A stretch of DNA of 64,000 nt from the IMG/VR virus record IMGVR_UViG_3300045988_184219. One strand, written 5' to 3'. Below the pieces are notes generated by a model. That model ran no database searches and had not been told where the DNA came from. It was given only the letters and a program-made list of their open reading frames with translations. Below, piece by piece: positions 4,864 through 62,702 of the stretch. Each line of letters starts with the position of its first letter. The first letter of the stretch is position 1. The stretch is from a virus. The position numbers and the translations under genes were made by a program.

Positions 4864-6141
4864 TTAATCAGCACAATCCACAATCCGTTGAAGCACAAAA
4901 TCTGCACATGCTTGGCACATCCCATTCCCGAGTGCTTTATACCGCGCAGAATCGCTTCCACCTTCTGTCCATCCATCAGGGAGAGCTTGTAAACGTTCAC
5001 ACTCTAAAGGAGTAAGCCGCCTCACGATATTTCCAACCGCCTCAGAAGATAGAGAATCTACCACTAAACTCTCGCTTCCTCCACCATGATTTCCACCTGT
5101 CGCTCGAAGTGCTGCGCATTTATTCTCTGCATACTCACTGAATGACTGTGCGGCAAAAATCTTCGCTACAGCATGGCGGTCTATTGTGTTGAGTGTATAT
5201 GACTTTTCGGACATCACACCTGTACCATTCCCACCATTTTGTATCTGACGCTCTATAGTATTTCCTGCAATACAATAACTCTGAACAAGCGGTACTTGAT
5301 GACCACCTGTACCCATTCTTGCTGCCAAGGTAGGTGTAACCTTATTGCCTGAAACACGAACAACATCATTAGAATGTGCTATATCGTATATGACATCGAC
5401 TGTATCTCTAACTGACGTTTCAGAACCTCCGGAAGCACTCTCCCGCGCTCCTTTGCCCTGCGCAAGATTCCCGCACACGCTTTCGGACTCAAATAATGCT
5501 TTTGCGGCACATCTTCTGTCTTTTCCAAAATCTGCGATAAGGAAGATTCTCTTGCGTCGCTGGGGCACTCCCCAATATTGAGCATCGAGGATTCGCCACG
5601 CAATGTCACAGATTGGCAATTCCACCAATCCCGCGTCTGCCCATCGTGCATTGGGAGGTACTGGAAGCGAGGTTTCTCCGATTTCTTCGAGCACGGTGTG
5701 AAAGTCCATTCCCTTGTTGCTTGAGAAGGCGCCGGGGACGTTTTCCCACACGAAGAAACGAGGGTTTTTCCCGTTTGTCCTTCTTCTAAGTTCTCGAACA
5801 AGCTTAATTGCTTCGAGGAATAACCCACTTCGTACATCCTTTAATCCTCTCCTCTTTCCTGCGGTGGATAGTCCCTGACAAGGCGATCCTGAACACACTA
5901 TATCTACAGGTGGAAGTGTGTCTGGATCTATTTTTGTTATGTCTCCAAGTTGTGTAACATGGGGGAAGTGTTTTCGCGTAATAGACTCAGGAAATGGTTC
6001 TATTTCGCTAGACCAAAGGGGTTCTATACCCGCACGCGTTGAGGCGAGTAACCATCCACCTATTCCATCAAAAAAACTTCCTAGTGTTAAATGTTTTTTC
6101 AATTCTCTACCACCAATCTTTTCTTTTTTTGATTGTACCAT
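4864..6141 (-). CDS. DNA (cytosine-5)-methyltransferase
   Basis: Motif I FFDGIGGW, PCQ motif GSPCQG, ENV motif FVWENVPG, QRRKR, C-terminal LTPLECERLQALPDGWT. Start set at ATG 6141 (MVQSKKEK); longer ORF to 6210 runs into a terminator hairpin. Confidence 0.85.
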   Translation of the reverse strand: MVQSKKEKIGGRELKKHLTLGSFFDGIGGWLLASTRAGIEPLWSSEIEPFPESITRKHFPHVTQLGDITKIDPDTLPPVDIVCSGSPCQGLSTAGKRRGLKDVRSGLFLEAIKLVRELRRRTNGKNPRFFVWENVPGAFSSNKGMDFHTVLEEIGETSLPVPPNARWADAGLVELPICDIAWRILDAQYWGVPQRRKRIFLIADFGKDRRCAAKALFESESVCGNLAQGKGARESASGGSETSVRDTVDVIYDIAHSNDVVRVSGNKVTPTLAARMGTGGHQVPLVQSYCIAGNTIERQIQNGGNGTGVMSEKSYTLNTIDRHAVAKIFAAQSFSEYAENKCAALRATGGNHGGGSESLVVDSLSSEAVGNIVRRLTPLECERLQALPDGWTEGGSDSARYKALGNGMCQACADFVLQRIVDCAD

Positions 6142-6187
6142 TTTAGATAGACCAAAGGAAAAGACGGTAAGGAACTTTTTACCACAT

Positions 6188-6358
6188 ACGAAAAGAGCGC
6201 CCCTAGTCATCAGGACGCTCTCTCCGCGAGTTGTTAGTTGGTTTTAGAAAGGAGGATTCGCAACGGTGTTCCCCCGCCGCCCATTCTGCCACCATATCTA
6301 GCCGCTTGGCGACGGGGCACCGTTTGAGCCGTTCTGGGGTTCCGAACTCCCCTCGGCT
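6188..6358 (-). ncRNA. candidate small ncRNA cassette with 16S-3'-end-like tail (GGGGGAACACCGUUGCGAAUCCUCCUUUCUAAAACC) before terminator
   Basis: ORF-free GC-rich segment bounded by promoter-box variant TTTACTATTATAC (6361-6373) and hairpin+U-tract at 6196-6235; paralog at 32810..33005. Confidence 0.45.
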
Positions 6359-6435
6359 CATTTACTATTATACCTGTTTTGAAAATGTGTGCTGGGAGTT
6401 TTGCGCAACGGACGAGATTTTTTTGATAAACCAAA

Positions 6436-7155
6436 GGAAAAAAGAAAACGCCCCGCGACAAGCACGGGACGCTTTTTTGTCCTACTCCTCGGATGCAACT
6501 CACGCAGCACCCTTCCTGTTTCACCGACTACTTACGCGGGTTGTCCGCGACCTTCATCTCCACAGGCGCAACTTCCCCCACAGCAGGACGTACGGGGTAC
6601 AAACGGCACTCGCTCCACCTCTAGCCACAGGATGCGAGTTATTATCGGCTTCTCGGGGCTCACGCGGCGGGGTCACAGGACACCCTCACCCACCAGTTTC
6701 GCTCGCCACACCATCCGCTAATTTATTCCACCGTGGTTAGCCGTCATGAGGTCTTTGCGACGTAATATTTTCTATGTATCATCGTAGTTTATGGAGATTG
6801 CGCTCCAAATTAGTCCGTCACATCGGACGTTTGCCCGCCATCATAATTGCTTCTCCTCTCTAGGTCTTTGAAAACTTTGTTCAAAGTAGGGCTGTTTCCC
6901 GCATATCCGAATTATCGCGGAGCCATTATATCACCCGCCGCACCCCTCCATCGGAGTGCGTCTAGCACGCGGGGATTTTAACATTGTTTAGGCGGCACAG
7001 GGGATGCAGGGGTCGATTCCTGCGTCCTTGTGAGGGATTTGCTATCAGGAGGCTTATCGTTCCTCGCGTGTGCGCCGCAACATCCGCAGCGCGGGGCGAG
7101 TGTCGTGTCCTCTCTGTTCGATCCGCCCACCAACTTCTCGTCGGTGTCCCTCTCG
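6436..7155 (-). ncRNA. candidate large (~720 nt) structured ncRNA, copy 1
   Basis: No credible ORF, high GC, own promoter box TTTATTATAGCAGG at 7161-7174, intrinsic terminator (cguccc gugcuugucgc ggggcg + U-tract) at 6440-6480; ~85% identical paralog at 36500..37232. Confidence 0.5.
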
Positions 7156-7374
7156 ATGGTTTTATTATAGCAGGTTCGAACGAGGATGTGGAGAGTTTTT
7201 GTTAAACCAAAGATTTTCTTTTTGAAAAACTTTGCGGGCGGGGCGTTTGATGCGTGGGAGATGTGGAACGCGACGAAAGATTTTTACTTTTGGTTTATCG
7301 AATCCAACTGAACTGACAAAATCAACTCAGATTTCCGACTCTCCCGATTCGAATTTCTGACAAAAACGACTACT

Positions 7375-7402
7375 TGACAAGCAACTATTCCGACTACATA
7401 AT
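7375..7402 (+). promoter_or_regulatory. consensus sigma-70 promoter on + strand (TTGACA-16-CATAAT)
   Basis: TTGACA 7375-7380, CATAAT 7397-7402; related copies at 58868 and 37366. Confidence 0.55.
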
Positions 7403-7674
7403 CCACGCTATTTAAGATGCACCATTCCTTTGGTCTACCAATACAGACGCAACCAAAAACAAACATAAGTTCTAATAAACAAAAACAAAAAAACAACACA
7501 CCTGCAAAAGCAAGTGTGCCGTTTTTCTTCTCACCCAACAAGCCGCCCATCGCTCAGACACTCTGGGTTACGTCCCGCAAGGTATGTTACTACCATGCCG
7601 TCTGCAAAACACCCATTGTAAAAATCTTCTGCGCTTTGATGGATTTTCGCAAACAAGTCGAACATTTTGGTCTG

Positions 7675-7706
7675 GTTTCAATCCGCGCACCCGCGTAAGG
7701 TGCGAT
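7675..7706 (-). repeat. solitary CRISPR-like repeat unit (type I-C-like): minus strand ATCGCACCTTACGCGGGTGCGCGGATTGAAAC
   Basis: Close to the I-C repeat consensus GTCGCGCCCCGCACGGGCGCGTGGATTGAAAC, with hairpin plus GGATTGAAAC handle; no adjacent spacer or cas. Confidence 0.55.
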
Positions 7707-8044
7707 GGCAACACATAGCCAGATTCGCCAGTCCCAAGCACTCACCCATCCACTCAGTGTACAAAATCGACATTATTTTGAGAATCCGTTTCCACTTACG
7801 CATCCTTGCGTCCGTCCTCTCCGAGAGAAATGGTGCCGATTTTATGATCACTTGAGGTTCGCACTCGGACCGTTTACTTTGGCATATCTCACCGTCATTT
7901 GTGTTGCGGTTGTAAATTTTCGGTCGCCCCGCCCAACGACCTTCTTTTAGTCTATCGCGTCACCCAACCAAGCGACGGATTCGACCTTGCTAGACAATCA
8001 ATCGCCTCACCGCACCTTTCCTTTGGTCTATCAACAAAACATCA
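7707..8044 (-). other. conserved ~330-nt leader-like element abutting the CRISPR-like repeat (copy 1 of 3)
   Basis: Begins GGCAACACATAG; long near-identical blocks shared with 22093..22433 and 62271..62602. Confidence 0.5.
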
Positions 8045-8097
8045 ATTAAAAAAAAGTGTAGCACATTTTAAAAATATTTTTCTCCAAAAAACGAAAA

Positions 8098-8312
8098 CGC
8101 CTCGCCATATCTGACAGGGCATTTTCAAGGTGAAGGTGATCCAAAGATGGCTTCAGATGGTTACAGAAAAAGCGAGAAAGGTTCGCAAATGCCGAAGCAT
8201 GTCTGGAAGGGACGCTCTGGATGTTTGTCCGTTCTACTCATATTATACAACAAATCAAACATCTTCGAGACCACCTACGACGAACACACTAAAACGCCGC
8301 TGTCCCTTTAAC
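8098..8312 (-). ncRNA. candidate ncRNA cassette E1 (GGATGGTTACAGA...TTCGAGACCACCTACGAC family)
   Basis: ORF-free; promoter-box variant CAATTAAATTTTATCAC at 8313-8335; hairpin CGCCATATCTGACAGGGC at the 3' end; paralogs E3-E5. Confidence 0.4.
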
Positions 8313-8361
8313 AATTAAATTTTATCACAAAAAACAAATTTTGCAACAGCCATCATCTAAA

Positions 8362-8997: not shown

Positions 8998-9192
8998 AGA
9001 AACCACCCTAGCCAAATAGACTAAGGTGGTTTTCGAAGGAGAAAACATTTTTTGGATGGTTGCAGAGCGGAAAGTAACGGTCTGGAAGAGATGCTCTTGA
9101 TGTTTTTTTGATGCAATCATGATCTTTGTTTTTTAACATCTTCGAGACCACCAACGACGTATATGGTTAGCAAAACGCCGTTATCTCTTTAA
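8998..9192 (-). ncRNA. candidate ncRNA cassette E3
   Basis: GGATGGTTGCAGAGCGG ... CTTCGAGACCACCAACGAC; promoter-box variant at 9193-9215; hairpin AAACCACC..GGTGGTTTT at 9000-9035. Confidence 0.4.
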
Positions 9193-9237
9193 CAATTAAA
9201 TTTTATCACAAAAAAGGTTGTTTTACAATACATCAAT

Positions 9238-9470
9238 TAACCAAAACAAAAGCGCCCCACCATTTCTGGCAGGACGCGGACGGAGTAGTCCTTTCGGGAT
9301 GGTTGCAGAGAGGGTTATCAATCCGACAAAAGAAGACCTGTCTGGAGGGAACGCTCTGAGCACCTGCTAGGCACAACACGCAGTCACGCCATGATGCTTT
9401 CGAGACCACCCACGACGAATTATGTCAGTCGCCGCTGTTCCCATGACATATAAAGTATATCAAAAACCAC
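9238..9470 (-). ncRNA. candidate ncRNA cassette E4
   Basis: CGCCCCACCATTTCTGGCAGG ... GGATGGTTGCAGAGAGG ... TTTCGAGACCACCCACGAC; ORF-free. Confidence 0.4.
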
Positions 9471-9598
9471 TTTTGTTTTCAACAATTTCTTGTTCTCGCA
9501 AAAAAACAAAATTATCTCTCACAAAAATCTAAAATCACCTTTCCATCCTTGTCAAGATGCCAAATTTTTCCATAGATAAAATTCAAATAGTTCTCCTC

Positions 9599-10189: not shown

Positions 10190-10329
10190 GGCGGGAGAAG
10201 TCCTTTCAGAGTTGTTGTTTGTGGTATGGGTAGGGGAGGATGAGCCAAAGGGAAAGGTTGACGAAATTTTATTGTTTCGATTATACTAAAATGGTTCTTA
10301 ATTTGTAACGAACTTTTGGAAATTAAAAA

Positions 10330-10698
10330 AACACCCGCCATTTCTGGTAGGTGTTTTTACATCGCCTAGGGGATTACCCCTTTGATTTCACCGCATAGTC
10401 AGCGATTCGTTTTAACGACTTTTTTTTGTCGGCGGGAGATGTAGCGCAATATTCTCGACCCACCCACCTATTAGGAGGAGGGGAGACAGCAGGATTAGGC
10501 GGTTACGGAGGGTGTGGTAAGTTACTTGCATGCCATAAAGGAGTTCCTGCGCTATGGACGGACGCAGGATTTTGTTCGCCGTCCGAGAGAAATGCTCAAT
10601 CGGGCTATGCCGCTGTGCGCCGCCTAGTTAGCCGCGCTGATGCCACTTGTCCGATGTTTGAGACCGCCTACGACCGTCTGGATGGTCGGTGTTTCTCT
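10330..10698 (-). ncRNA. candidate ncRNA cassette E5
   Basis: Hairpin AAAACACCCGCCATTTCTGGTAGGTGTTTTT at 10330-10365; TTTGAGACCGCCTACGAC core; promoter-box variant TATTTATAACTATAAC at 10700-10720; ORF 10426..10728 judged spurious. Confidence 0.35.
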
Positions 10699-10818
10699 TA
10701 TATTTATAACTATAACAAAAATAAATGATTTTGCAAGAGATTTTTACTTTTTAGATAATATTTTTAAAACAAAAGAAAGAAGGTAAGACCACAAACAGTC
10801 AAACCTTCTTCCTTTTGA

Positions 10819-21719: not shown

Positions 21720-22076
21720 TTACTTGCGATGGGAATGAGAGATTACCTCATCCAACATAATTACAAGCCAGTCAGGTTTGTTCGTCAGCCTATTGGTCAA
21801 GTGTTCAAGAGAGGCCACTTGTTGCGGGGAGGAAAGTGTGTGATGTTTAACAATCAGAGTTAGCCCACGAACGAGAGCTGTGAGACGTTCGTGGGGAGGC
21901 TTATGCGATTGGACGTTATTGATAAGTGTATCAATTTGCTCGTTGACAAGTTTTTGTTGTTCAACCTGCCAAGTCGCAACCTCTCGTTGAGCGTCAGCAA
22001 GATGACGGCTTTTGGATATGTTTGGGGTTTTCAAAGAGAACACCTTCTTTTTGGCGATGGGTTTCAATCCGCGCAC
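21720..22076 (-). CDS. doubtful ORF (118 aa, no ATG start, no SD), runs into the CRISPR-like repeat
   Basis: Only a GTG start inside the repeat; no cassette. Confidence 0.2.
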   Translation of the reverse strand: MRGLKPIAKKKVFSLKTPNISKSRHLADAQREVATWQVEQQKLVNEQIDTLINNVQSHKPPHERLTALVRGLTLIVKHHTLSSPQQVASLEHLTNRLTNKPDWLVIMLDEVISHSHRK

Positions 22077-22092
22077 CTACAATAGGTACGAT
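22061..22092 (-). repeat. solitary CRISPR-like repeat unit (type I-C-like): minus strand ATCGTACCTATTGTAGGTGCGCGGATTGAAAC
   Basis: Same GCGGATTGAAAC handle and a compensated hairpin as at 7675 and 62075-62270. Confidence 0.5.
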
Positions 22093-22433
22093 GGCAACAC
22101 ATAGAAAGATTCGCCCGTTCCGAGTGCCTTCCACTCCACACAGATCACAAAATCGACGTATTTTAGGGAATCTATTCCCACTATCGCATCCTTGCGACCC
22201 TTCTCGATGAGAGGAAACGAGTCGATTTTATGTTCACTTGAGGTTCACACTCAGACGTTTTCTTTGGCATATCCAACGATTATTTGTGTCGCGGTTGTAA
22301 ATTTTCGGTCGTCCGCGCAAAACGACCTTCTTTTGACCAAATTCACGTCACCCAACCAAACGCCGGGTTCGACCTTACCACACAATCAATCCTCTCACCA
22401 CACCTTTCCTTTAGGCTATCAACAAGACTTCAT
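22093..22433 (-). other. conserved ~330-nt leader-like element (copy 2 of 3)
   Basis: GGCAACACATAG ... CGCATCCTTGCGACC ... GCGGTTGTAAATTTTCGGTCG ... shared with 7707..8044 and 62271..62602. Confidence 0.5.
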
Positions 22434-22529
22434 TTACAGAAAGTGTAACACATATTAAAAATTATTGTTCTGCAAAAAGAAAAACACCTGTCAAGCAAGT
22501 GTTTTTCAAGGAAGAGATTTGAGAAAGAA

Positions 22530-23099: not shown

Positions 23100-23520
23100 A
23101 CCCACTCATTATTATAAAGGTGAGCTATCTTTCCGTTTCATTAATCAAGCTGTTTTATATCAACCAACCATCCTTTTCGTCTTTCCAAGTTCATCATACT
23201 GCTCCACCCAATTCTTCAAATGAGCATCCGCAACAGAGAGAGACACGGACGGATAGCGACGAATACAGTTGCCATTCTTATAATATCGCACTTGAACTCC
23301 CCACGACTCTCATCGCGGGATTCTCGGGTCGTTCGCAACTTAGACACCTTCTCACCGCAAATGAGACGTTGATCCAGTGCCCAGAGGTCGCGAAAAATTA
23401 CCGAGCTATCCCCGTCGTCCCAACGGTTCGGTAAGGCGAAAAGTTCGTTGATAAGCCAAAGGATTAGGCGGATTTGTCGCGAAACTTTTCATCGAGTTCT
23501 ACGAGGAGCCGAAGCCCTTC
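23100..23520 (-). ncRNA. candidate TnpB guide RNA (omega/reRNA) region: 3' end of tnpB plus downstream right end
   Basis: ~400 nt ORF-poor segment downstream of tnpB where IS605-family elements encode their guide RNA; not verified structurally. Confidence 0.3.
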
Positions 23521-24621
23521 GCAGAGAATATTCTGTGCCGCGTTGAGGTCGCGGTCGTGATGATGCCCACACTTCGGGCAGATCCACTCACGCACGCTGA
23601 GTTCCTTGACGGCGGGGTTTTTGAAGCCGCAATTTCCGCAGGTCTGCGAGGAGGCGTAGAACCTGTCCACAGTGAGGAGAACGCGTCCGCGCCAGAGAGA
23701 CTTGTATTCGAGCTGTCGTCTAAGTTCACCCCACGAGGAATCCGCGATGTGACGGGCGAGACAGTGATTCTTTATCATCCCGCTCACGTTGAGGTCTTCA
23801 ATGAAGATAACCCCGTACTTTTTTGTGACAAAGTTCGTTAATTTATGAAGGTAGTCCTCTCGTTGTGCCGCAATTTTTGCGTTCAGCCGTGCCACCTTGA
23901 CCCGAGCCTTCTCGCGACGCGCACTCGACTTTGATTTTCGGTCGAACGAGCGTTGCAGAAATTTCAGGCGATTTAAGGAGGTATTGAGCGGCTTGAGCGC
24001 GTCAAACTGCGTGCCATCGGAGAGGATTGCGAGGTCTTTGATGCCAAGGTCGATGCCGACAGGATCTTCATTGTGCTCCAACACAGGCGCAGGAACGTCG
24101 GTTGCGCAGATCGAAATGTAGTACCGCCCGTCTGGTTCGATACGCACGGTCGCACTGAGGATTCTGCCCTCTGGAATGAGGTTCTTCCCTCCGCGAATCC
24201 GCACCCTGCCGAGCTTCGGAAGCTTGATATGCGTCCCCTCAAACGCGATGTTGTTATTCGTGAAATTCGTCCGATAACTCTGATAGTTGTCGCGTTTGGA
24301 CTTGAAGCGTGGATAACCAAACTTCCTCTTGCGCGACGAGTTGACCGTTCCAAAGAAATTATCATAGGCTTTATCGAGATCGCGAAGGGCGTTCTGTAAC
24401 GCACATTTATCGGGTTCGAGGAGGAACGGGAGTTCACGTTTGAGGTCGGTCAGCCGTTTGCTACACGCGTTGTAACCGAGCGTTTTCTTCGTTTCCGCGT
24501 ATGTGTCGATTCGGAGTCGAAGAAAATAATTGTAAATAAATCGTTTACACCCGAACGTCTTTTTAATCAAGTCACGTTGCTTTGCGTTCGGGTAGGCACG
24601 GTACACGTACCCCTTTTCCAT
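23464..24621 (-). CDS. tnpB: IS200/IS605-family TnpB (RNA-guided RuvC nuclease, OrfB)
   Basis: RuvC-I GIDLGIKD, RuvC-II IFIEDLN, zinc finger CGNCG...CPKCG, RuvC-III RDLNAAQNI; 385 aa; no tnpA. Confidence 0.85.
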   Translation of the reverse strand: MEKGYVYRAYPNAKQRDLIKKTFGCKRFIYNYFLRLRIDTYAETKKTLGYNACSKRLTDLKRELPFLLEPDKCALQNALRDLDKAYDNFFGTVNSSRKRKFGYPRFKSKRDNYQSYRTNFTNNNIAFEGTHIKLPKLGRVRIRGGKNLIPEGRILSATVRIEPDGRYYISICATDVPAPVLEHNEDPVGIDLGIKDLAILSDGTQFDALKPLNTSLNRLKFLQRSFDRKSKSSARREKARVKVARLNAKIAAQREDYLHKLTNFVTKKYGVIFIEDLNVSGMIKNHCLARHIADSSWGELRRQLEYKSLWRGRVLLTVDRFYASSQTCGNCGFKNPAVKELSVREWICPKCGHHHDRDLNAAQNILCEGLRLLVELDEKFRDKSA

Positions 24622-32461: not shown

Positions 32462-32809
32462 TAGTGCAATCTTCCTTTCTTTGAGAGATTTTTTATTTTG
32501 AAAGATATTTCTATGATAGCACTTTTTAGTGTGATTTTGGAGGTAAAAATTGTAGGCATTTGTTAGATGCAAAAAGAACGCCCAATTAAGGACGCTCCGT
32601 TTGCAGATTGTTTTTTAGAAAGGAGGCGATGCTTTCAATCACCCTAAACCAACAAGAATTTTACGTGTCAGCTTGGTCAAGCATCGTAGGGTGTTTCCTG
32701 ACTTCTTTGACAGTATAACTGATAGTTAAGTTCCACGATGAAGTTTTTGTTTTTACGTGGATTTTTTTTGATAAGCCAAAGAAAAGGTTGCAAGGAACGT
32801 TTCGGTGCA

Positions 32810-33005
32810 TACGAAAAGAGCGCCCTTAGCCATCAGGACGCTCTCTCCGCGAGTTGTTAGTTGGTTAGTTGCTATCTTTCGATAGCCAGTCAGAAAGGAG
32901 GATTCGTAACGGTGTCCCCCGCGGCCCATTCTGCCGCATATCTAGCCGCTTGGCGACGGGGCACCGTTTGAGCCGTTCTGGGGGCTACGCTCGCTCCCTC
33001 GGCTC
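32810..33005 (-). ncRNA. candidate small ncRNA cassette with 16S-3'-end-like tail (paralog of 6188..6358)
   Basis: Near-identical promoter-proximal 150 nt to 6210-6365, with an extra GCTATCTTTCGATAGC hairpin inserted; ORF 32869..33342 shares only the nt-identical part. Confidence 0.45.
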
Positions 33006-33214
33006 ATTTACTATTATACCTATTTTGAAAATGTGTGCTGGGAGTTTTGCGCAATGGACGATTTTTCTTTTTCTATTTTCTTTTTTCCACCCTCACACAC
33101 AAAAAACCGACAACAATAAAACAAACACTTATTCCCGCAAAGAAACACAAAAGAAAAGACCATTGGAAGATGAAAGAGTTTCTTCCTTTGATCTATGTCC
33201 TTTCGACAAAACGG

Positions 33215-36399: not shown

Positions 36400-36480
36400 T
36401 AATTGGATTAACTCAATTAACAGAGTCTTGTTAATTGAGTTAATCGAGTCAACAAGGTCAACAAGGTCAACAAGGTCAAC
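36400..36480. repeat. AT-rich 17-bp-arm palindrome (GATTAACTCAATTAACA..TGTTAATTGAGTTAATC) followed by GTCAACAAG x4
   Basis: Occupies the position normally taken by the GC hairpin terminator; related TTAATTGAG tandem at 4040-4095. Confidence 0.5.
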
Positions 36481-36499: not shown

Positions 36500-37232
36500 T
36501 AAAAAATGAAAACGCCCTGCGACAAGCACAGGACGTTCTCTCGAACACTTTCCACACAATAAGTCACGGGATCATCCCCCTCGGGATTCAACGGCAACTC
36601 ATTGTACTGCAACCACCGATGTTCACACGGCTGGTATCATCATCCTCGCGCCCCACAACGAGGAAACCACAAGATTTTGGGGCAATATTTGACGGCACTC
36701 GCACCACCTCTAGCCACGCGTGATTTGCAGTTACGAGCGACTTGTCGGGACGTATCTTCGCGGCGGGGTCAACGGGTGTTATGCCCTCTCCCACCATCCA
36801 GTCCACCATCCACTCCTCTTGTGCGTGGTTAGCCGTCATGAGGTCTTTGCGACGTAATGTATGTTATCAGCCGTAGTTTAGGGAGATTGCACTCCGAATC
36901 AGTCTATCACATCGGACGTTTACCCGCCATCATGGTTGCTTCTCCTCTCTAGGTCTTTCAAGCTCTTTTTTCAAAGTAGGGCTGTTTCCCGCTTATCCGA
37001 ATTCTCGCGAAGCCCTTATATCACCCGCCGCACCCCACCATCGGAGTACGTCTAGCACGCGGGGATTTTAACATTGTTTAGGCGGTCGAGGTTGCTCGCG
37101 GAGGTCGATTTCCACGTCCTCGGGAGAGACTCTCAACAGGTGTCTAGCGTTCCTCATGTGCGCCGCTTTAGCTGCGCGGAGTTGCGTCAACCTGCCTGAG
37201 CCGCCTACCAACTTTTCGTCGGTGTCCCTCTC
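36500..37232 (-). ncRNA. candidate large (~730 nt) structured ncRNA, copy 2
   Basis: Paralog of 6436..7155: shared blocks GGTTAGCCGTCATGAGGTCTTTGCGACGTAAT and GTCTAGCACGCGGGGATTTTAACATTGTTTAGGCGG; promoter box 37238-37250; terminator 36510-36545. Confidence 0.5.
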
Positions 37233-37365
37233 GATGGTTTTATTATAGCAGGTTCAAACGAGAATGTGGAGAATTTTTGTTGAGTCGAAGGTTTTTCTTT
37301 TTCGAGAGAGGTGGGAGGTGTCGGGAACCAGTTTCTTTGGCTTATCCTATCCGACTTAACCGACT

Positions 37366-43476: not shown

Positions 43477-44823
43477 TCACGCGGACTCCCGACGAGGCGA
43501 GTCTGTTGGACGAGCAGCCAAACCAGCACAGGCGATCCTTGTCGGCGCTACCATAATCGGGCGTAGCACAACGCCCTCTATCCCGTCGGCAAACGCGTTC
43601 GGGACTACTTTTTTCACGATCTGCAACGCTCCGTTTACGTCCGCATTCACGCGTGTTCCGTCGTTTGAACGGAATAATCCTCGATGAATACGACGCTTTT
43701 TGTTGTAAAATTCGCGTGTCGGGGGCTCTCCGTCCAGAAATGATGTACCGCTCGTATAGCTTTCTTCTGTTACGACAACAGCTATACCATGTTCATACGC
43801 TTTGTACTCGATCATTTCTATCAATCGGGCGAACGGGAGTCCTACAAAATGCTGGTTCTCCTTCGCCGTGAACGGGGTGCGCTCCTTCCAGTCGCGGTTT
43901 AGACCAATGATAAGTGTCGGAATATTCTGTGCGACGAGGCGATCTACGATGAGGCGCGAGGTCTTGTGCAGGTAATCCTTGAGTTTTGCGTTCCTTTTGT
44001 CAATCAGGCGTTGGATTCTCCGCGTCACTTTCCTCCCATTGAGGTGCTCCGACATCTCACGGAGAGACGCCAAACGCTTGTTGTAGAACTGGTTGATCGA
44101 CTTCGGGATGCGACCGTTTACGATGATCGGAGCGTCCCCCGTGGAGAACGCCATCGTAACGAAGTTGTTTACGCCGAGGTCAATTCCTGCGTATCTCCCG
44201 TTGGGCTTTCTCTGAGGAACTTCCTTGATTCTGTAAACGATTTCAAGGGTGATGAACCCTCCGTGCGGGACAAATCGAACCTGTTGAAACGACTTTATTT
44301 CACGAGGGCTGTTAGTGTCCTCGCGGATGAACTGCGGCTCAACCGTGAACCCCTTGAAAACTTTTGGAAACACGATTTTTCCATCCCGAATTTTACACTC
44401 TTGACTCGTTAAAGTTAGAACGTGCTTTCCATCCTTCTTTAGAAAATGAGGCGGTTTCGGACGACCCTTATACTTTTCAGGGTGCTTTTTCCAATCTTTA
44501 AGTTCTTCCCAAAAACTTTTCCAGTCTGTCACGAGCAAGCGTAAATTCTGCTGTGCGCTCTGTGCCGTCGGCATGTTCCGATAGTCGGGAAAGTCCGTTT
44601 TCGACTTCAGGATTTTGTCAAGTTGTTCATAACTCGACTGTTTCTCGTGCGCGAAAAACTGTTGCCGAAGTAGATAATTCCCTTGATTATAAAGGTTTTT
44701 TGACATGTGACAAAACTCCGCGAGCATTTCATACGCGGGGTGAGTCTCCTTGATGATGTGTTGCTCCACGCGAACAAAGGGATCTTTCTTTTTCTTCGTT
44801 TTTGGCTTTTCTTCCGTTTTCAC
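43477..44823 (-). CDS. TnpB-derived protein lacking zinc finger and RuvC-II Glu (possible nuclease-dead, TldR-like)
   Basis: RuvC-I GIDLGVNN present, DYLHK block aligns with the intact TnpB, RuvC-II position reads IIGLN (no Glu), YTSGTSFLDG replaces the CxxC zinc finger, NADVNGALQI retained; ~200 aa N-terminal extension; standard cassette promoter at 44878-44900; only 67 nt to the next gene. Confidence 0.6.
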   Translation of the reverse strand: MKTEEKPKTKKKKDPFVRVEQHIIKETHPAYEMLAEFCHMSKNLYNQGNYLLRQQFFAHEKQSSYEQLDKILKSKTDFPDYRNMPTAQSAQQNLRLLVTDWKSFWEELKDWKKHPEKYKGRPKPPHFLKKDGKHVLTLTSQECKIRDGKIVFPKVFKGFTVEPQFIREDTNSPREIKSFQQVRFVPHGGFITLEIVYRIKEVPQRKPNGRYAGIDLGVNNFVTMAFSTGDAPIIVNGRIPKSINQFYNKRLASLREMSEHLNGRKVTRRIQRLIDKRNAKLKDYLHKTSRLIVDRLVAQNIPTLIIGLNRDWKERTPFTAKENQHFVGLPFARLIEMIEYKAYEHGIAVVVTEESYTSGTSFLDGEPPTREFYNKKRRIHRGLFRSNDGTRVNADVNGALQIVKKVVPNAFADGIEGVVLRPIMVAPTRIACAGLAARPTDSPRRESA

Positions 44824-46189: not shown

Positions 46190-46274
46190 ACCTTTCTTTT
46201 AAAACCGACTAAACTCCATTGATATATTTATTATATAACTTTTGCATACGAAGATAAGAAAAACGAGCAGACTC

Positions 46275-46690
46275 AGCGCTTTCTTTACGCTGTTTTTGCT
46301 CGTTTTCCTTTGGCTTACAACGCCGATTTTGTAACTCCCAAGTCCATTATGGCAAGGGAGATAGCACCTCGCGCTTCCGAATTGTCGCGAGAGCCGATTA
46401 TTTCCACCCGCCCGCACCTTTCGGCACGATCTAGCGCGCGGGGGATTTACTTAGTCATGCACCCCACGACTAAAGCTAGGGGCTTGTCCCAGCCGACACG
46501 CTTCCGAGCGATGCGAGGTTCAGACGGTTGAGAAGGAGAACGGGGCTCAATTTGCGAGTTGGTTTAGAAAGGAGGCTTTTCCCCGCACACAGTAAAAGCG
46601 GGAATTCATGGAAACCGAGGCTGTGCCCCGCCGAGCCGACATGCCGACGGAAGCCACCCCTAGCTGACAGCCGCATTCTTCGCAGCTACT
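46275..46690 (-). ncRNA. candidate mosaic ncRNA cassette (shares 77-nt block with 8447-8523, GCGCGGGGGATTT module and CCUCCUUUCUAAACC tail)
   Basis: ORF-free GC-rich; promoter-box variant CACATTATAGCGCAAC ~46715; hairpin + T-tract terminator 46270-46305. Confidence 0.4.
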
Positions 46691-46849
46691 TGAGCACCAT
46701 CGTCCGTGCCATCAGCTATGTTCACATTATAGCGCAACAGGAAGGTGCGTGGGGAGAAAAAGAGAAAACGGTAGAAAAGTTTTTTGATTTTCAACAAAAG
46801 CCCCTTCCCAATAACGGAAGTCTTTTCCTTTGGCATATTTTACAAAAGA

Positions 46850-55638: not shown

Positions 55639-55896
55639 AACTTCCTTTCACATCAAGATGTTGGATGTATTTATTATATAATTTTTTCGAGAACTGGTTT
55701 TAAAAAAAAGAAAAAAACAATGAAAACCGTTGATCTTTTTGCAAATTTTTGTTCTAACCAACACTCATTTCGCTTTCAAGGTTTCAATCCGCACCCTCCA
55801 AATAAAGAGCGATAACAACATTCAGACTTGTCAAACATAAAACTAACAGAACTTAAAACAAAAGCGACAACCTAGAAAGGTCGCCGCCAATGTAAC

Positions 55897-58073: not shown

Positions 58074-58652
58074 TTAGTCGATGTCCTGCCCGTCCGACCA
58101 ATATAGGTCGTTCTTCCCAACCAGATAAGCGTCCACGGTGATGTCCCAGTACGCTTCCGAAAGAAGTTGGAGGACGTTGAGTCGAACCTTGGAACAGAGA
58201 ACATAGAGCGCGTCCCTTGCCCACATACCAGCTTTAAAGAAATCATCGTTTCCGATCTTTGCGTCCGTGTCAACATCACTGAAAACTCTGTCGTTGACGC
58301 AAACCGCGTTGATTTCCGCGAGTGTTTCGATAACACCGTCACAAATCGGATAGGTGGAGAGATTGCGAATTTTCCCGACGAACTTCTGAGTCGCCTCTTT
58401 ATTGTAGATTCCAAAATCCACACTCACAACCGCGCCGTACGGACGACCCTCCTTGTCCAGATCACCCTCCCAACCGACGTGGATCTCAACGTCGTTCTTA
58501 GTGAGTCCGAACTCATTGTAGAGCGTACTCTCTGCGTTCAGTCGCGCCGCTTCGATTGCGTGGGCGAGATAGGCGAGGCTTGCCTTTGTACGCGCCATAA
58601 CACGATCTTTTGCGACTGGGTGGAGGTCAACGTAGCACTCTTTTGTTTCCAT
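58074..58652 (-). CDS. paralog family C protein (192 aa)
   Basis: C-term YLVGKNDLYWSDGQDID; cassette block 58671-58707. Confidence 0.6.
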   Translation of the reverse strand: METKECYVDLHPVAKDRVMARTKASLAYLAHAIEAARLNAESTLYNEFGLTKNDVEIHVGWEGDLDKEGRPYGAVVSVDFGIYNKEATQKFVGKIRNLSTYPICDGVIETLAEINAVCVNDRVFSDVDTDAKIGNDDFFKAGMWARDALYVLCSKVRLNVLQLLSEAYWDITVDAYLVGKNDLYWSDGQDID

Positions 58653-61013: not shown

Positions 61014-61481
61014 TTAAGCCACTAATGCGACACTCGCGCACTGTACGCAAGCGCGAAGAAAACGGTCAGCCTCAACGAGTCCCATACTCTCCTGAGAGAT
61101 GATAAATCCATTGAGAGCAAAGACAACTTCAACTCGTTTCCCCGTAACGTGCAACAGCACATCACTCACATCAACCATCTCTGTGGTAGAACGGTCGATT
61201 CGGACGGAGTAAGAGGGATAGGGCTTAGTTTGAGCAGAAGGATAGTGTTCGACGATCTGAATAAAATTCTGGTAGACCGACGTGACACTCCACTCATTCT
61301 TCTCATCCGCAACGACCTCAGAGATGGTTTTGTAGACAGTATGATTTTGAAGAGTTCCGCCGATGTCGCCATTATAGAAAGGCTTATGTGTCTTATTGTC
61401 AGGCGTTCCGTGCCAACCGTAGATGTGGGTTGCGCCGTTGGTCTTAGCGAGTGTGCCGAGGGTTTTCTGGATGATGTTCAT
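61014..61481 (-). CDS. hypothetical protein (155 aa; start at MNIIQKTLG)
   Basis: SD GAAAGGAGAAAAACA before ATG 61481. Confidence 0.55.
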   Translation of the reverse strand: MNIIQKTLGTLAKTNGATHIYGWHGTPDNKTHKPFYNGDIGGTLQNHTVYKTISEVVADEKNEWSVTSVYQNFIQIVEHYPSAQTKPYPSYSVRIDRSTTEMVDVSDVLLHVTGKRVEVVFALNGFIISQESMGLVEADRFLRACVQCASVALVA

Positions 61482-61494
61482 TGTTTTTCTCCTT

Positions 61495-61947
61495 TCAAGC
61501 AAGCGCGATAATACAGAATCGCTGGAACAACTCAATAGCTTTATCTTCTTTGACAACATTTAAATCGTCAGAGATAAGAAAACCTTCTGTCCGAACCTCG
61601 ATTTCTTCCGAACCTGCGATGGGGGTGAGTTCTATAACCTCAAGACTAGGGCGGTTAATATCAGGAGAGATCTCAACACGGAATCCGTGCTCGAAAACAC
61701 TGTATTGGACACGAACAATTCCTTTGAGTGTTTTAATGCCGATACGCCAAGAGTAGCGTTCCTCCTTGATCGCACGAAGGAATGAAGCGAGAGAAGGTGT
61801 GCCGTTGAGTATTTCTCCGCGAGGAGCCTCATCTTCGAGTACGCCACGCTCATAATCGGGCTGGTGAGGTAGGCGGTGGTCGTAGATGTACTTAATGATG
61901 TCCAAAGAGGAGATGAATGAGTGGATGGCGGAGTGAAGTTTTGTCAT
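61495..61947 (-). CDS. hypothetical protein (150 aa)
   Basis: SD AGAAAGGATAG before ATG 61947; cassette block 61975-62005. Confidence 0.55.
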   Translation of the reverse strand: MTKLHSAIHSFISSLDIIKYIYDHRLPHQPDYERGVLEDEAPRGEILNGTPSLASFLRAIKEERYSWRIGIKTLKGIVRVQYSVFEHGFRVEISPDINRPSLEVIELTPIAGSEEIEVRTEGFLISDDLNVVKEDKAIELFQRFCIIALA

Positions 61948-62074
61948 TTTTTTCTATCCTTTCTGTGAGAGATCTTTTAACAACTCTTGATAGATTTATT
62001 ATATAGCTTTTTACTAGACCAAAAGAGAAAAACGACACGCGAACAAGATTTTGTTTCTTGTAGGTGTGTCGTTT

Positions 62075-62270
62075 GTTTCAATCCGCGCACTCCATACAGA
62101 GTGCGATTTTGCGCTCAATGGCTTTATTGTCTCTCAGGTTTCAATCCGCGCACCCACGAAGGGTGCGATGGGCATAATTTCAACCCACACTACCTATACG
62201 GGTAGTGTTCTCTTTACACTGAGCACAATAGAATCGGGTTTCAATCCGCACGCCCTATACGGGGCGTGAT
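62075..62270 (-). CRISPR. mini CRISPR-like array, type I-C-like repeats: R1 62075-62107, spacer 62108-62137 (30 nt), R2 62138-62169, degenerate repeat ~62178-62207, spacer ~62208-62237, R3 62238-62270 (leader-proximal)
   Basis: Minus-strand repeats ATCGCACTCTGTATGGAGTGCGCGGATTGAAAC / ATCGCACCCTTCGTGGGTGCGCGGATTGAAAC / ATCACGCCCCGTATAGGGCGTGCGGATTGAAAC; constant GCGGATTGAAAC handle, hairpin stems kept by compensatory changes; no cas genes in the window. Confidence 0.55.
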
Positions 62271-62602
62271 GGCAACACATAGCAAAATTAACCAAATCCG
62301 CGCACTCACTACTCCACTCACCCATCAAAATCGACGTAATTTAGGAAATCCATTCCCGATCACGCATCCTTGCGTCGATCCTCTCCGAGAGAAACGTGTC
62401 GATTTTATGTTCGTTTAGGATTCGCACTAAAACTGTCCTTTGGCTAATCCAACCGTCATTTTTGTGTTGCGGTTGCAAGATTTCGGTCGCCACCGCCAAA
62501 CGACCTTCTTTTGGTCAAATTCACGTCGCCCAACCAAGCGACGGGTTCGACCTTGCTAGACAATCAACGGTCTCACCGAACCTTTCCCATTGGTCTATTA
62601 AC
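62271..62602 (-). other. conserved ~330-nt leader-like element (copy 3 of 3) adjacent to the mini-array
   Basis: GGCAACACATAG ... CGCATCCTTGCGTCGATCCTCTCCGAGAGAAA ... GCGGTTGCAAGATTTCGGTCGCC ... shared with copies at 7707 and 22093. Confidence 0.5.
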
Positions 62603-62702
62603 AAAACATCATTTACAGAGAGTGTAGCACAGATTCAAAAGAGTTTCCTGCAAAAAAGAAAAACCAACACATGATTTTTAAAATATGTGTTGGTTCTCGA
62701 CA

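Follow-up and report, generated by a model that had tools for sequence, protein, structure and literature searches.

We analysed a 64,000-nucleotide stretch of viral DNA (IMG/VR record IMGVR_UViG_3300045988_184219; hereafter the window) that carries two paralogous units of about 710 nt without an open reading frame (ORF). We refer to the family of these elements as F1 and to its two members as copy A (7172→6438) and copy B (37250→36502). All coordinates are positions in the 64-kb window, and the units are read on the minus strand. F1 is an ORF-less transcription unit that specifies a modular RNA with two structured domains, it mimics the repeats of CRISPR systems, and it belongs to a family of cassettes that lack cas genes. 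We infer, tentatively and at slightly less than even confidence, that F1 is a large structured variant of the phage repeat-mimicking RNAs and that it engages the Cas5 and Cascade proteins of host type I-C systems.

Promoter, terminator and structured domains

A reading made earlier from the sequence alone had proposed two paralogous, GC-rich, ORF-less elements that share long blocks at 6436-7155 and 36500-37232, each with a promoter variant at its 5' end and a textbook intrinsic terminator at its 3' end. All of this was borne out. The quoted blocks are found in both copies, and the alignment and coordinates place the two paralogs on the minus strand. The copies are about 80% identical overall, and the identity is patchy: invariant runs of 25-40 nt alternate with segments rich in substitutions and indels (of 1, 2, 3, 4, 12 and 13 nt). 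The GC content is 55.2% in copy A and 53.9% in copy B, compared with 43.8% in the window.

The promoter scan found at copy A (7164..7192) a -35-like TCCACA, a 17-nt spacer and a TG-extended -10 element, TGCTATAAT, in which TATAAT is the -10 hexamer with TG in front; transcription is predicted to start near 7157. The -10 element of copy B lies at 37242-37250. The 14-mer CCTGCTATAATAAA occurs twice in 64 kb, at copies A and B only, against 0.01 occurrences expected. The F1 promoter is conserved among relatives, and the AGTCGGA-rich stretch upstream of both F1 promoters is homologous to the promoter region of a protein gene at 58652. At the 3' end both copies have a strong intrinsic terminator, a GC-rich hairpin of 13-14 bp followed by a U-run. 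The terminator of copy A (6438..6475, 13-bp stem) is kept in relatives; that of copy B lies at 36502-36538. Because F1 has a promoter and a terminator and shares its promoter region with a protein-coding gene, we regard the F1 units as cassettes like any other in this genome, except that they contain no ORF.

An alignment of 14 copies provided a module map. From 5' to 3', the modules are M1 (~175 nt at the start), M2 (~270 nt, with almost no variation), M3 (~150 nt), a variable tail (~120 nt) and the terminator. Domain M1, which is multi-helical, occupies 6983..7156 in copy A and 37073-37234 in copy B. The first part of M2, domain M2a, lies at 6882..6982 and 36972-37072, respectively. Domain M3 (6603..6756 in copy A; 36692-36848 in copy B) consists of the invariant blocks AAAGACCTCATGACGGCTAACCAC, TGACCCCGCCGCG and GTGGCTAGAGGTGGnGCGAGTGCCGT, which are split by variable G-rich stretches. 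In none of the 12 full-length copies is the promoter, the terminator or either structured domain disrupted.

The minimum-free-energy (MFE) fold of M1 has one architecture across all sequence types: a 5' hairpin (P1), a long-range GGCGG/CCGCC helix, a three-way arm and a hairpin with the conserved loop AAUCGACC. The stem under this loop varies by type, being GCAGG/CCUGC, GUGGA/UCCGC or UUGUGGG/CCCGCAA. We built a covariance model (R1) from eight A-type sequences and the MFE structure, aligned all matches to it (alignment A10) and counted the pairs. In this alignment 95.1% of the cells were paired, compared with 86.9% in shuffles (0/500), and 17 of the 42 pairs had changed on both sides, compared with 8.2 expected (0/500). 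When the partners were shifted by 1-3 columns, only 32-47% were paired and 2-4 pairs had changed on both sides. Many of the M1 pairs are G-U; thus, the fold exists only in the minus-strand transcript.

The M2a domain has an outer helix, CCCCGC/GCGGG, around a repeat-like hairpin, CGCACUCC-GAUG-GAGGGGUGCG, and a second hairpin with the conserved loop AUAAUUCGGA comes after the inner one. The procedure used for M1 was also applied to M2a, taken as the initial 98 nt of M2, on a set to which three divergent copies belonged (model R2, alignment A13). Pairing reached 96.7%, compared with 87.4% in shuffles (0/500), and 8 of the 26 pairs had changed on both sides, compared with 4.4 expected (3/500). 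Thus, M1 and M2a are structured RNA domains supported by compensatory changes. The remainder of M2 and all of M3 are near-invariant and are therefore uninformative on structure either way. The claim of the sequence-only reading that divergent positions often look compensatory holds for the pair counts of M1 and M2a, and the rest of M2 and M3 do not bear on it. Its proposal of large structured non-coding RNAs (ncRNAs) also stands in part: F1 consists of stand-alone non-coding units with at least two covariation-supported domains, but the proposal missed their basis in repeats, their place in a mosaic family of orphan repeat cassettes, the Shine-Dalgarno (SD) site and a mini-ORF.

Searches for known RNAs gave no family that accounts for F1. 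The Rfam covariance models had no match over the window at the gathering score, and at E-values of up to 10 over 6200-7500 they returned only noise. This Rfam search, which the earlier reading had recommended, gave no match to GOLLD, ROOL, HEARO, OLE, raiA, group I or II introns, RNase P or transfer-messenger RNA (tmRNA). ARAGORN found no tRNA or tmRNA. The earlier reading had not matched the elements to rRNA, RNase P, tmRNA or intron cores by eye. F1 does resemble GOLLD, ROOL, HEARO (omega RNA), OLE and raiA in its size (~0.7 kb), its phage context, a GC content above that of the genome and its multi-helix covarying domains. It differs from them in having no covariance-model match to any of the five, in not being adjacent to IscB or to the 3' end of tnpB, and in showing no association with tRNAs at its loci. 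Literature and Rfam searches found no described RNA of the F1 kind and no family that covers it.

The copies also show no conventional protein-coding potential. No reading frame is conserved between copies A and B, whose indels are not multiples of three, and a search of 5.8 billion proteins with a six-frame chimeric query from copy A, intended to pick up any miscalled ORFs over homologues, had no match. These results, together with the directional promoter and terminator, the G-U helices that are valid on one strand only and the standard genetic code of the neighbouring genes, make it highly improbable that F1 is a DNA element (a replication origin, a packaging site or a recombination site) or a protein gene in another genetic code. 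Such a view draws on the fact that the element is repeated, GC-rich, ORF-free and located at assembly breakpoints: the methylase gene of the window is also found on ENA contig L001, which breaks 540 bp from the methylase, i.e. at element A.

Mimicry of type I-C repeats and the sister cassettes

The RNA of F1 begins with a mimic of a type I-C repeat. In copy A this 5' pseudo-repeat (7116..7146) consists of a 7-bp hairpin, CACCGAC-GAGAA-GTTGGTG (7128-7146), whose helix shows compensatory changes, and the handle-like GGCGGATCGAAC (7116-7127). The hairpin begins about 10 nt after the predicted transcript start and forms part of M1. In the RNA, CACCGAC-GAGAA-GUUGGUG is followed by GGCGGAUCGAAC, or by GGCGGAUUGAAC in orthologues of the L016 type, and the handle behind the hairpin has the consensus GGCGGAT(C/T)GAAC (GGCGGAUYGAAC in RNA). 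The canonical counterpart of the mimic is GCACCC-UUCG-GGGUGC followed by GCGGAUUGAAAC. The motif GCGGATYGAA occurs seven times in the window, compared with 0.35 expected, and every site lies on the minus strand. Canonical repeats account for six of them, and the remaining one is at the 5' end of copy A. Local alignment of the 5' site to the repeat gave p ~0.03 for copy A and 0.004 for an L016-type orthologue. Of the mimic, copy B retains at its 5' end just the hairpin (37207-37223) and GGCGG, and the diverged handle AGGCGGCTCAGGC occupies 37194-37206.

Further repeat-like sequences occur within and at the end of the RNA. The inner hairpin of M2a is followed by GCGGGUGAUAUAA, and in divergent copies CCGUGCC-GAAA-GGUGCGG is followed by GCGGGUGGAAAU, which gives this part of the RNA a repeat-like look. 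The tail of copy A (6479..6598), which is homologous to the canonical repeat at locus L011, contains psiR1, which is a decayed repeat (6565-6598), another pseudo-repeat with TCGGTGAAAC at its end (6518-6551) and a spacer-like stretch of 39 nt (6479-6517). The tail of copy B has the same parts: a decayed repeat (36636-36685), psiR2 GAGTTGCCGTTGAATC (36585-36600) and a spacer-like stretch of 48 nt (36537-36584). Directly 3' of the core of copy B, TTGCCCC...GGGGCGCGAGGATGATGAT aligns to the canonical repeat ATCGCCCCGTTTGGGGCGCGGATTGAAAC that L011 has at the equivalent place, with a score of 27 compared with a maximum of 26.5 in shuffles (0/300). The copy A tail is a more decayed version of that repeat, and ...GTAGTCGGTGAAAC lies about 40 nt before the terminator of copy A. 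The motif CGGTGAAAY occurs four times in the window (1.39 expected), twice at 32-40 nt upstream of a terminator, in copy A and in a unit at 10.3-10.7 kb. Thus, the 5' end and the tail of F1 mimic type I-C repeats. We also considered a pairing of the F1 core with the repeat of the kind made by a trans-activating CRISPR RNA (tracrRNA). We dropped this idea since the duplex energy was marginal for the whole repeat (p 0.02-0.03) and not significant for the handle.

Two other units in the window share parts with F1. The unit at 10.3-10.7 kb is a third, shorter relative (10325..10736, minus strand), with the promoter TTGCAA/TGTTATAGT, an M1-like domain (10491-10701; 21.9 bits with model R1, E 0.0024, a rough value), GACTATGCGGTGAAAT (10385-10400, 31 nt before the terminator), a spacer-like stretch of 31 nt and a terminator. 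A mosaic ORF-less unit at 46270..46750 (minus strand) has an F1-like start (GCTATAAT...CATAGCTGATGGCACGG) and a copy of M2a (46353-46448; 39 bits with model R2, E 4e-7).

F1 also has relatives that carry canonical repeats. A second family of ORF-less cassettes has three copies of ~430 nt in the window, with 78-80% identity and one copy adjoining copy A (7487-8346, 21950-22520 and 62020-62700, all minus strand). These have an TGTGCTACACT promoter and a conserved, apparently structured leader of ~400 nt, and each ends in (A/G)TCGCACCYnnnnGGGTGCGCGGATTGAAAC, the canonical repeat. The copy at 62.0-62.3 kb has about four repeats in the spacing of a CRISPR array and forms a mini-array (at least two near-identical repeats with spacers of ~30-40 nt) at 62075-62270. 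In copies A and B we found only degenerate, irregularly spaced remnants of such an arrangement. We assign the canonical repeats to type I-C because a near-identical repeat, GTCGCACCCTACACGGGTGCGTGGATTGAAAT, lies beside cas3-cas5c-cas8c-cas7c-cas2 in Monoglobus pectinilyticus (NZ_OY725739.1) and because a Xanthomonas citri repeat has the same architecture (PMC9504256). The Monoglobus repeat has the form GTCGCACCC...GGATTGAAAT. Rfam CRISPR-DR9 matches the canonical repeats of the family weakly. A tblastn search with type I-C Cas proteins found no cas gene in the window or in the fetched loci.

The sister cassettes have spacers with matches in the same phage lineage. One spacer of the 62-kb array matches the adjacent gene 61014-61559 at 26 of 30 positions in the antisense direction, and the first spacer of locus L006 matches the same window gene at 31 of 34. 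The flanks of these two matches are TCT and CTC, which differ from TTC, the protospacer adjacent motif of type I-C systems.

The F1 core has repeatedly been joined to canonical repeats. At L006, M1 and M2 of F1 are joined to the 3' part of the 430-nt family with two canonical repeats, so that M3 is replaced. At L011 the F1 core is followed by a canonical repeat. L021, from IMG/VR, has the TGCTATAAT promoter, a copy of M2a, the SD and mini-ORF, a canonical repeat, 18 nt and a terminator. At L022, also from IMG/VR, both flanks of the copy B position are collinear with those in the window, but copy B itself is replaced by a 130-nt scaffold ending in GTCGTTGACGCGGATTGAAAC; ~25 nt with homology to the last part of the copy B tail come next, and then the same terminator. 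Thus, a solitary-repeat cassette occupies the copy B locus there. Other recombinants involve F1 modules alone: at L014, M3 and the tail are the only F1 parts and have a different promoter of their own, L004 has a different first ~190 nt, and in L005 the 5' part is B-like and the 3' part A-like. Sensitive pairwise searches between the cassette families found the repeat handle as their sole shared part.

The scaffold-plus-handle cassette at L022 is frequent in the lineage. This short family is absent from the window and was seen at L004, L008, L010, L012, L016 and L019-L022 (e.g. L022:3778-3988). It has an TGTTATACT promoter, a conserved scaffold of ~130 nt with TCTCTATYAAWTGTCGTTGACGCGGATTGAAAC at its end, then 20-40 nt that vary, and a terminator; its layout resembles a natural single-guide RNA, and four copies occur on one IMG/VR contig.

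How does F1 compare with known systems of this kind? Viral solitary repeat units lie just downstream of promoters and without cas genes (PMC10651486). RNA anti-CRISPRs (Racrs) trap Cas proteins and thereby inhibit type I-F, I-E, I-C and V-A systems, and RacrIC1 has been validated as a type I-C member (PMC10651486, Camara-Wilpert et al. 2023). F1 resembles these RNAs because a repeat mimic of a defined subtype, I-C (the 5' hairpin and GGCGGATYGAAC, similar to GCACCC..GGGTGC+GCGGATTGAAAC), lies just downstream of a phage promoter in a solitary unit on a mobile element; no cas genes accompany it in the window or the loci, and the lineage is present in IMG/VR. It differs because a Racr is a small RNA that is essentially a single repeat, whereas the F1 mimic makes up the first 40 nt of a structured RNA of ~710 nt with conserved domains, further degenerate repeats, a conserved body and a mini-ORF, and because the copy B handle has diverged. 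In the window, a site at 55781-55813 (minus strand) looks like a classic solitary repeat unit and is a Racr-like candidate: the type I-C-like repeat ATCGCTCTTTATTTGGAGGGTGCGGATTGAAAC stands there directly downstream of a TTGACA box.

Viruses also carry mini-arrays against rival viruses (PMC6858448, Medvedeva et al. 2019). F1 shares with these the presence of orphan repeats on a virus, and its sister cassettes (62.0-62.3 kb and L006) have canonical repeats and spacers that match a gene of the same phage lineage, imperfectly. In contrast to mini-arrays, copies A and B lack an intact repeat-spacer-repeat unit, and the ‘leader’ of F1 is 570 nt long, GC-rich, structured and predicted to be transcribed, whereas ordinary leaders, e.g. 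in Monoglobus, are AT-rich. Phages additionally encode RNAs that resemble CRISPR RNAs (crRNAs), have degenerate repeats and reprogram Cas proteins (bioRxiv 10.1101/2024.10.29.618823). Like CreA, CreR and the viral ‘Cracr’ RNAs of that work, F1 is phage-encoded and has a degenerate repeat, a spacer-like stretch and a terminator, and its paralogs carry different ‘spacers’. It differs in being far longer and in having a tail stretch for which no target was found in the sequences searched.

A conserved mini-ORF

The sequence-only reading held that neither copy has an SD site or a plausible ORF. The first of these statements is contradicted by AGGAG, a strong SD site that lies 8 nt upstream of a conserved ATG. 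The second stands in that no frame is conserved over the copies and no protein was matched, but a conserved ATG ORF of eight codons exists. In copy A, the SD-like GAGAGGAGAAGCAA (6847-6860) is invariant and is followed by the mini-ORF ATGATGGCGGGCAAACGTCCGATGTGA (6818-6844), which would encode MMAGKRPM*. In copy B the mini-ORF also has eight codons and lies at 36907-36933 (36907-36949 with its SD). The region reads GAGAGGAGAAGCAAyyAUGAUGGCGGGCAAACGUCCGAUGUGA and is invariant save at a few sites in the 14-copy alignment. The differences within the mini-ORF are GCG/GCA, GGC/GGT and AAA/AAG, all synonymous, and one CCG>TCG (CCG>UCG in RNA). The hairpins GUCCG..CGGAC and GGAG..CUCC lie downstream. 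The IMG/VR locus L021, a relative only ~80% identical, keeps the SD and encodes MEAGKRPLEGD*, and its conserved islands are exactly M2a and the SD-ORF region.

These features recall CreT (PMC8501985), which has a strong SD, an efficient start and a downstream stem-loop. F1 has AGGAG at 8 nt from AUG, a mini-ORF of few codons, a UGA stop, downstream stem-loops and nearby degenerate repeats. It differs from CreT because it is phage-borne and not inside a cas locus and because it has no conserved tandem minor codons, which are the defining feature of CreT. The F1 codons are AUG AUG GCG GGC AAA CGU CCG AUG UGA and those of L021 begin AUG GAG GCU GGC...; no conserved tandem rare codons follow the start codon in either. 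We therefore rejected a CreT identity of the mini-ORF.

If the mini-ORF were the functional product, either as the peptide MMAGKRPM or as a CreT-like, translation-dependent RNA toxin or a trap for ribosomes or tRNA, the rest of F1 would be a regulatory leader and trailer. The strong SD, the mostly synonymous variation, the retention of the SD and of xAGKRP in L021, and the CreT-like stop and hairpins are all in keeping with such a product. We consider it very unlikely. Variation at the third position at three of the four variable sites is not significant (~0.1, by our own count), conservation of the nucleotides is equally explicable by RNA structure, the tandem minor codons are missing, and eight codons cannot account for 700 nt of conserved structured RNA.

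In the 430-nt family (7671-8097; transcript start e.g. 8290-8250), an SD-like AAAGGAAAGG precedes a tiny GTG ORF that would encode MRRLIV*, MRGLIVW* or MRPLIV*, with tandem Arg codons in the first copy.

Genome context and interpretation

Relatives of F1 were found in metagenomes. Copy A had no blastn match among the 50,697 records of phages and the 72,556 plasmids searched, none of four F1 blocks was matched exactly in IMG/VR, and a 20-mer scan of GTDB genomes gave two chance matches only. A metagenome scan with a 22-mer found 13 loci in gut metagenomes that are 85-97% identical to copy A or copy B. In total, F1 has fifteen relatives, drawn from gut metagenomes plus a single viral contig in IMG/VR. 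Two F1 copies occur on a single 483-kb contig (BNJS01002811.1), so the phage-like element is at least 480 kb long, and a 145-kb IMG/VR viral contig has many cassettes in common with the window. Gene order differs greatly between related contigs. Most likely, the genome is a mosaic of shuffled cassettes in a very large phage. A cluster of four tRNAs (Phe, Lys, Asn and Glu) at L007:12913-13226 and L008:6675-6988 in related contigs fits a very large phage genome.

Searches of about 30 neighbouring proteins against PHROGs and Pfam gave almost no annotation. The annotated neighbours are a C5 methylase, an SNF2 helicase, a Band 7 protein, a transposase-like helix-turn-helix protein and two TnpB-like proteins. 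The TnpB-like genes (23464-24621 and 43477-44823, minus strand; OrfB_IS605 and Cas12f1-like TNB) are at different positions in related contigs and are probably mobile insertion sequences, not partners of the RNA. As they are far from both copies, we rejected F1 as a TnpB or IscB guide RNA (omega or reRNA). At L012, F1 lies upstream of tnpB, an adjacency that is not conserved.

Several repeated features border the cassettes. An intergenic block of ~280 bp, which follows the copy A terminator and precedes the methylase gene, has a second occurrence at 32.8-33.1 kb with 84-91% identity (6246-6424 versus 32892-33071; 6141-6243 versus 32765-32866) and is probably a shared promoter or 5'-untranslated-region cassette. 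Immediately after the copy B terminator, at 36440-36480, comes a tandem repeat, (GTCAACAAG)x4. Many cassette borders, such as those near 7400, 37440 and 58900, carry the motif TAGACCAAAGGAA, which is also found where the 430-nt family starts. Two short ORF-less units, each running from a promoter to a terminator, lie in 9000-9560 on the minus strand (9482→9252 and 9228→9000) and have a common GGTGGTCTCGAA motif.

We propose the following model for F1. A strong extended -10 promoter would drive a structured RNA of ~710 nt that ends at an intrinsic terminator. Hairpins derived from CRISPR repeats punctuate this modular RNA: the 5' mimic is predicted to fold into M1, a second repeat-like hairpin opens M2, and one or two decayed repeats with spacer-like stretches precede the terminator. 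F1 belongs to an orphan, cas-less cassette family that ranges from genuine I-C mini-arrays through solitary repeats to degenerate forms. The transcript would be abundant, and most likely it would be recognized by Cas5 and Cascade of the host type I-C system. It would then either occupy these proteins as a decoy or sponge that mimics repeats, or supply regulatory guides that resemble crRNAs. By either route the phage would blunt or redirect host CRISPR immunity.

Some of our results weigh against this model. Copy B retains the helix but has a diverged 5' handle (GGCGGCUCAGGC), so selection there seems to act on the fold and not on a sequence recognized by Cas proteins, and in the predicted fold the handle nucleotides are base-paired. 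The M2a hairpin is only suggestive of the repeat by sequence alone (p 0.07-0.1, not significant). The tail ‘spacers’ of F1 had no match in the window, in all fetched loci or in the Monoglobus I-C cas locus, including the region upstream of cas3; Monoglobus, however, may not be the host of the phage. The apparent ‘spacer’ at L011 was rejected because the sequence after the repeat there is the interior of a downstream gene, which indicates a deletion variant and not spacer acquisition. The folding-energy z-scores of the whole RNA are modest (-2.25 and -1.55), and the alignments behind the covariation are model-fitted and represent few independent lineages. Known Racrs and crRNA-like RNAs are small, and no known system explains a conserved body of 550 nt with an SD and a mini-ORF. 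Finally, the element is 90-92% identical between orthologues, compared with 86-93% for flanking genes, so that the orthologues are no better conserved than their flanks, and L009, an orthologue of copy A, has an AT-rich insertion of ~300 nt in the spacer-like tail (L009:1757-2057).

The last two observations, together with the degenerate repeats of copies A and B and the rampant recombination, would suit a decaying and largely functionless remnant of a phage mini-CRISPR array with an unusually long transcribed leader, whose conservation reflects recent duplication and gene conversion. We find this explanation improbable. The promoter, the terminator and both domains are intact in every full-length copy, and compensatory changes indicate selection for the fold. 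Divergence of the paralogs is block-wise and not uniform, and the SD and mini-ORF are kept at L021.

The main rival to a Cas-directed function is an autonomous large structured ncRNA, unrelated to CRISPR, that serves as a scaffold or as part of an RNA-protein particle, as might ROOL or GOLLD. The repeat-like hairpins would then be leftovers or recombined building blocks. We consider this unlikely, although less so than decay. It would explain the covariation-supported domains, the invariant blocks between paralogs, the retention in copy B of the helix and not of the handle sequence, the free recombination of modules and the tail ‘spacers’ without targets. It does not predict repeat mimicry at several positions and in several relatives, the repeated joining of the core to canonical I-C repeats, or the swap of a solitary-repeat cassette into the exact copy B locus, and F1 has no likeness to any large RNA in Rfam. 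For F1 as a whole, a CRISPR-derived and CRISPR-mimicking phage RNA is thus a better-supported frame than a new class of ornate RNA, possible as the latter is.

We can also imagine a bolder form of our Cas-directed model, to which we give less credence than to the model itself and a little more than to the autonomous RNA. F1 may represent a distinct new class, namely a phage RNA of ~0.7 kb in which repeat-derived hairpins flank long, conserved and folded ‘giant spacers’ and are bound or cut by the Cas5 or Cascade of the host. Such an RNA might be a multivalent anti-CRISPR that traps Cas subunits, or an ncRNA (with a translated mini-ORF) that is matured by the host CRISPR enzyme.

In sum, F1 is one of several interchangeable ORF-less cassettes in its lineage, which include long structured leaders, solitary repeats and mini-arrays. 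Phage repeat-mimicking RNAs are a recent discovery and the described examples are all short; here, the mimic lies inside a conserved, covariation-supported RNA of 0.7 kb. The loci supply concrete constructs for type I-C tests, including single-module RNAs. If F1 does not act on Cas proteins, it would still be a new family of large structured RNAs with a conserved mini-ORF. If type I-C Cas proteins are its targets, this new and large phage ncRNA would gain a testable function, and RNA anti-CRISPRs or CRISPR hijacking would extend to large multi-domain RNAs.

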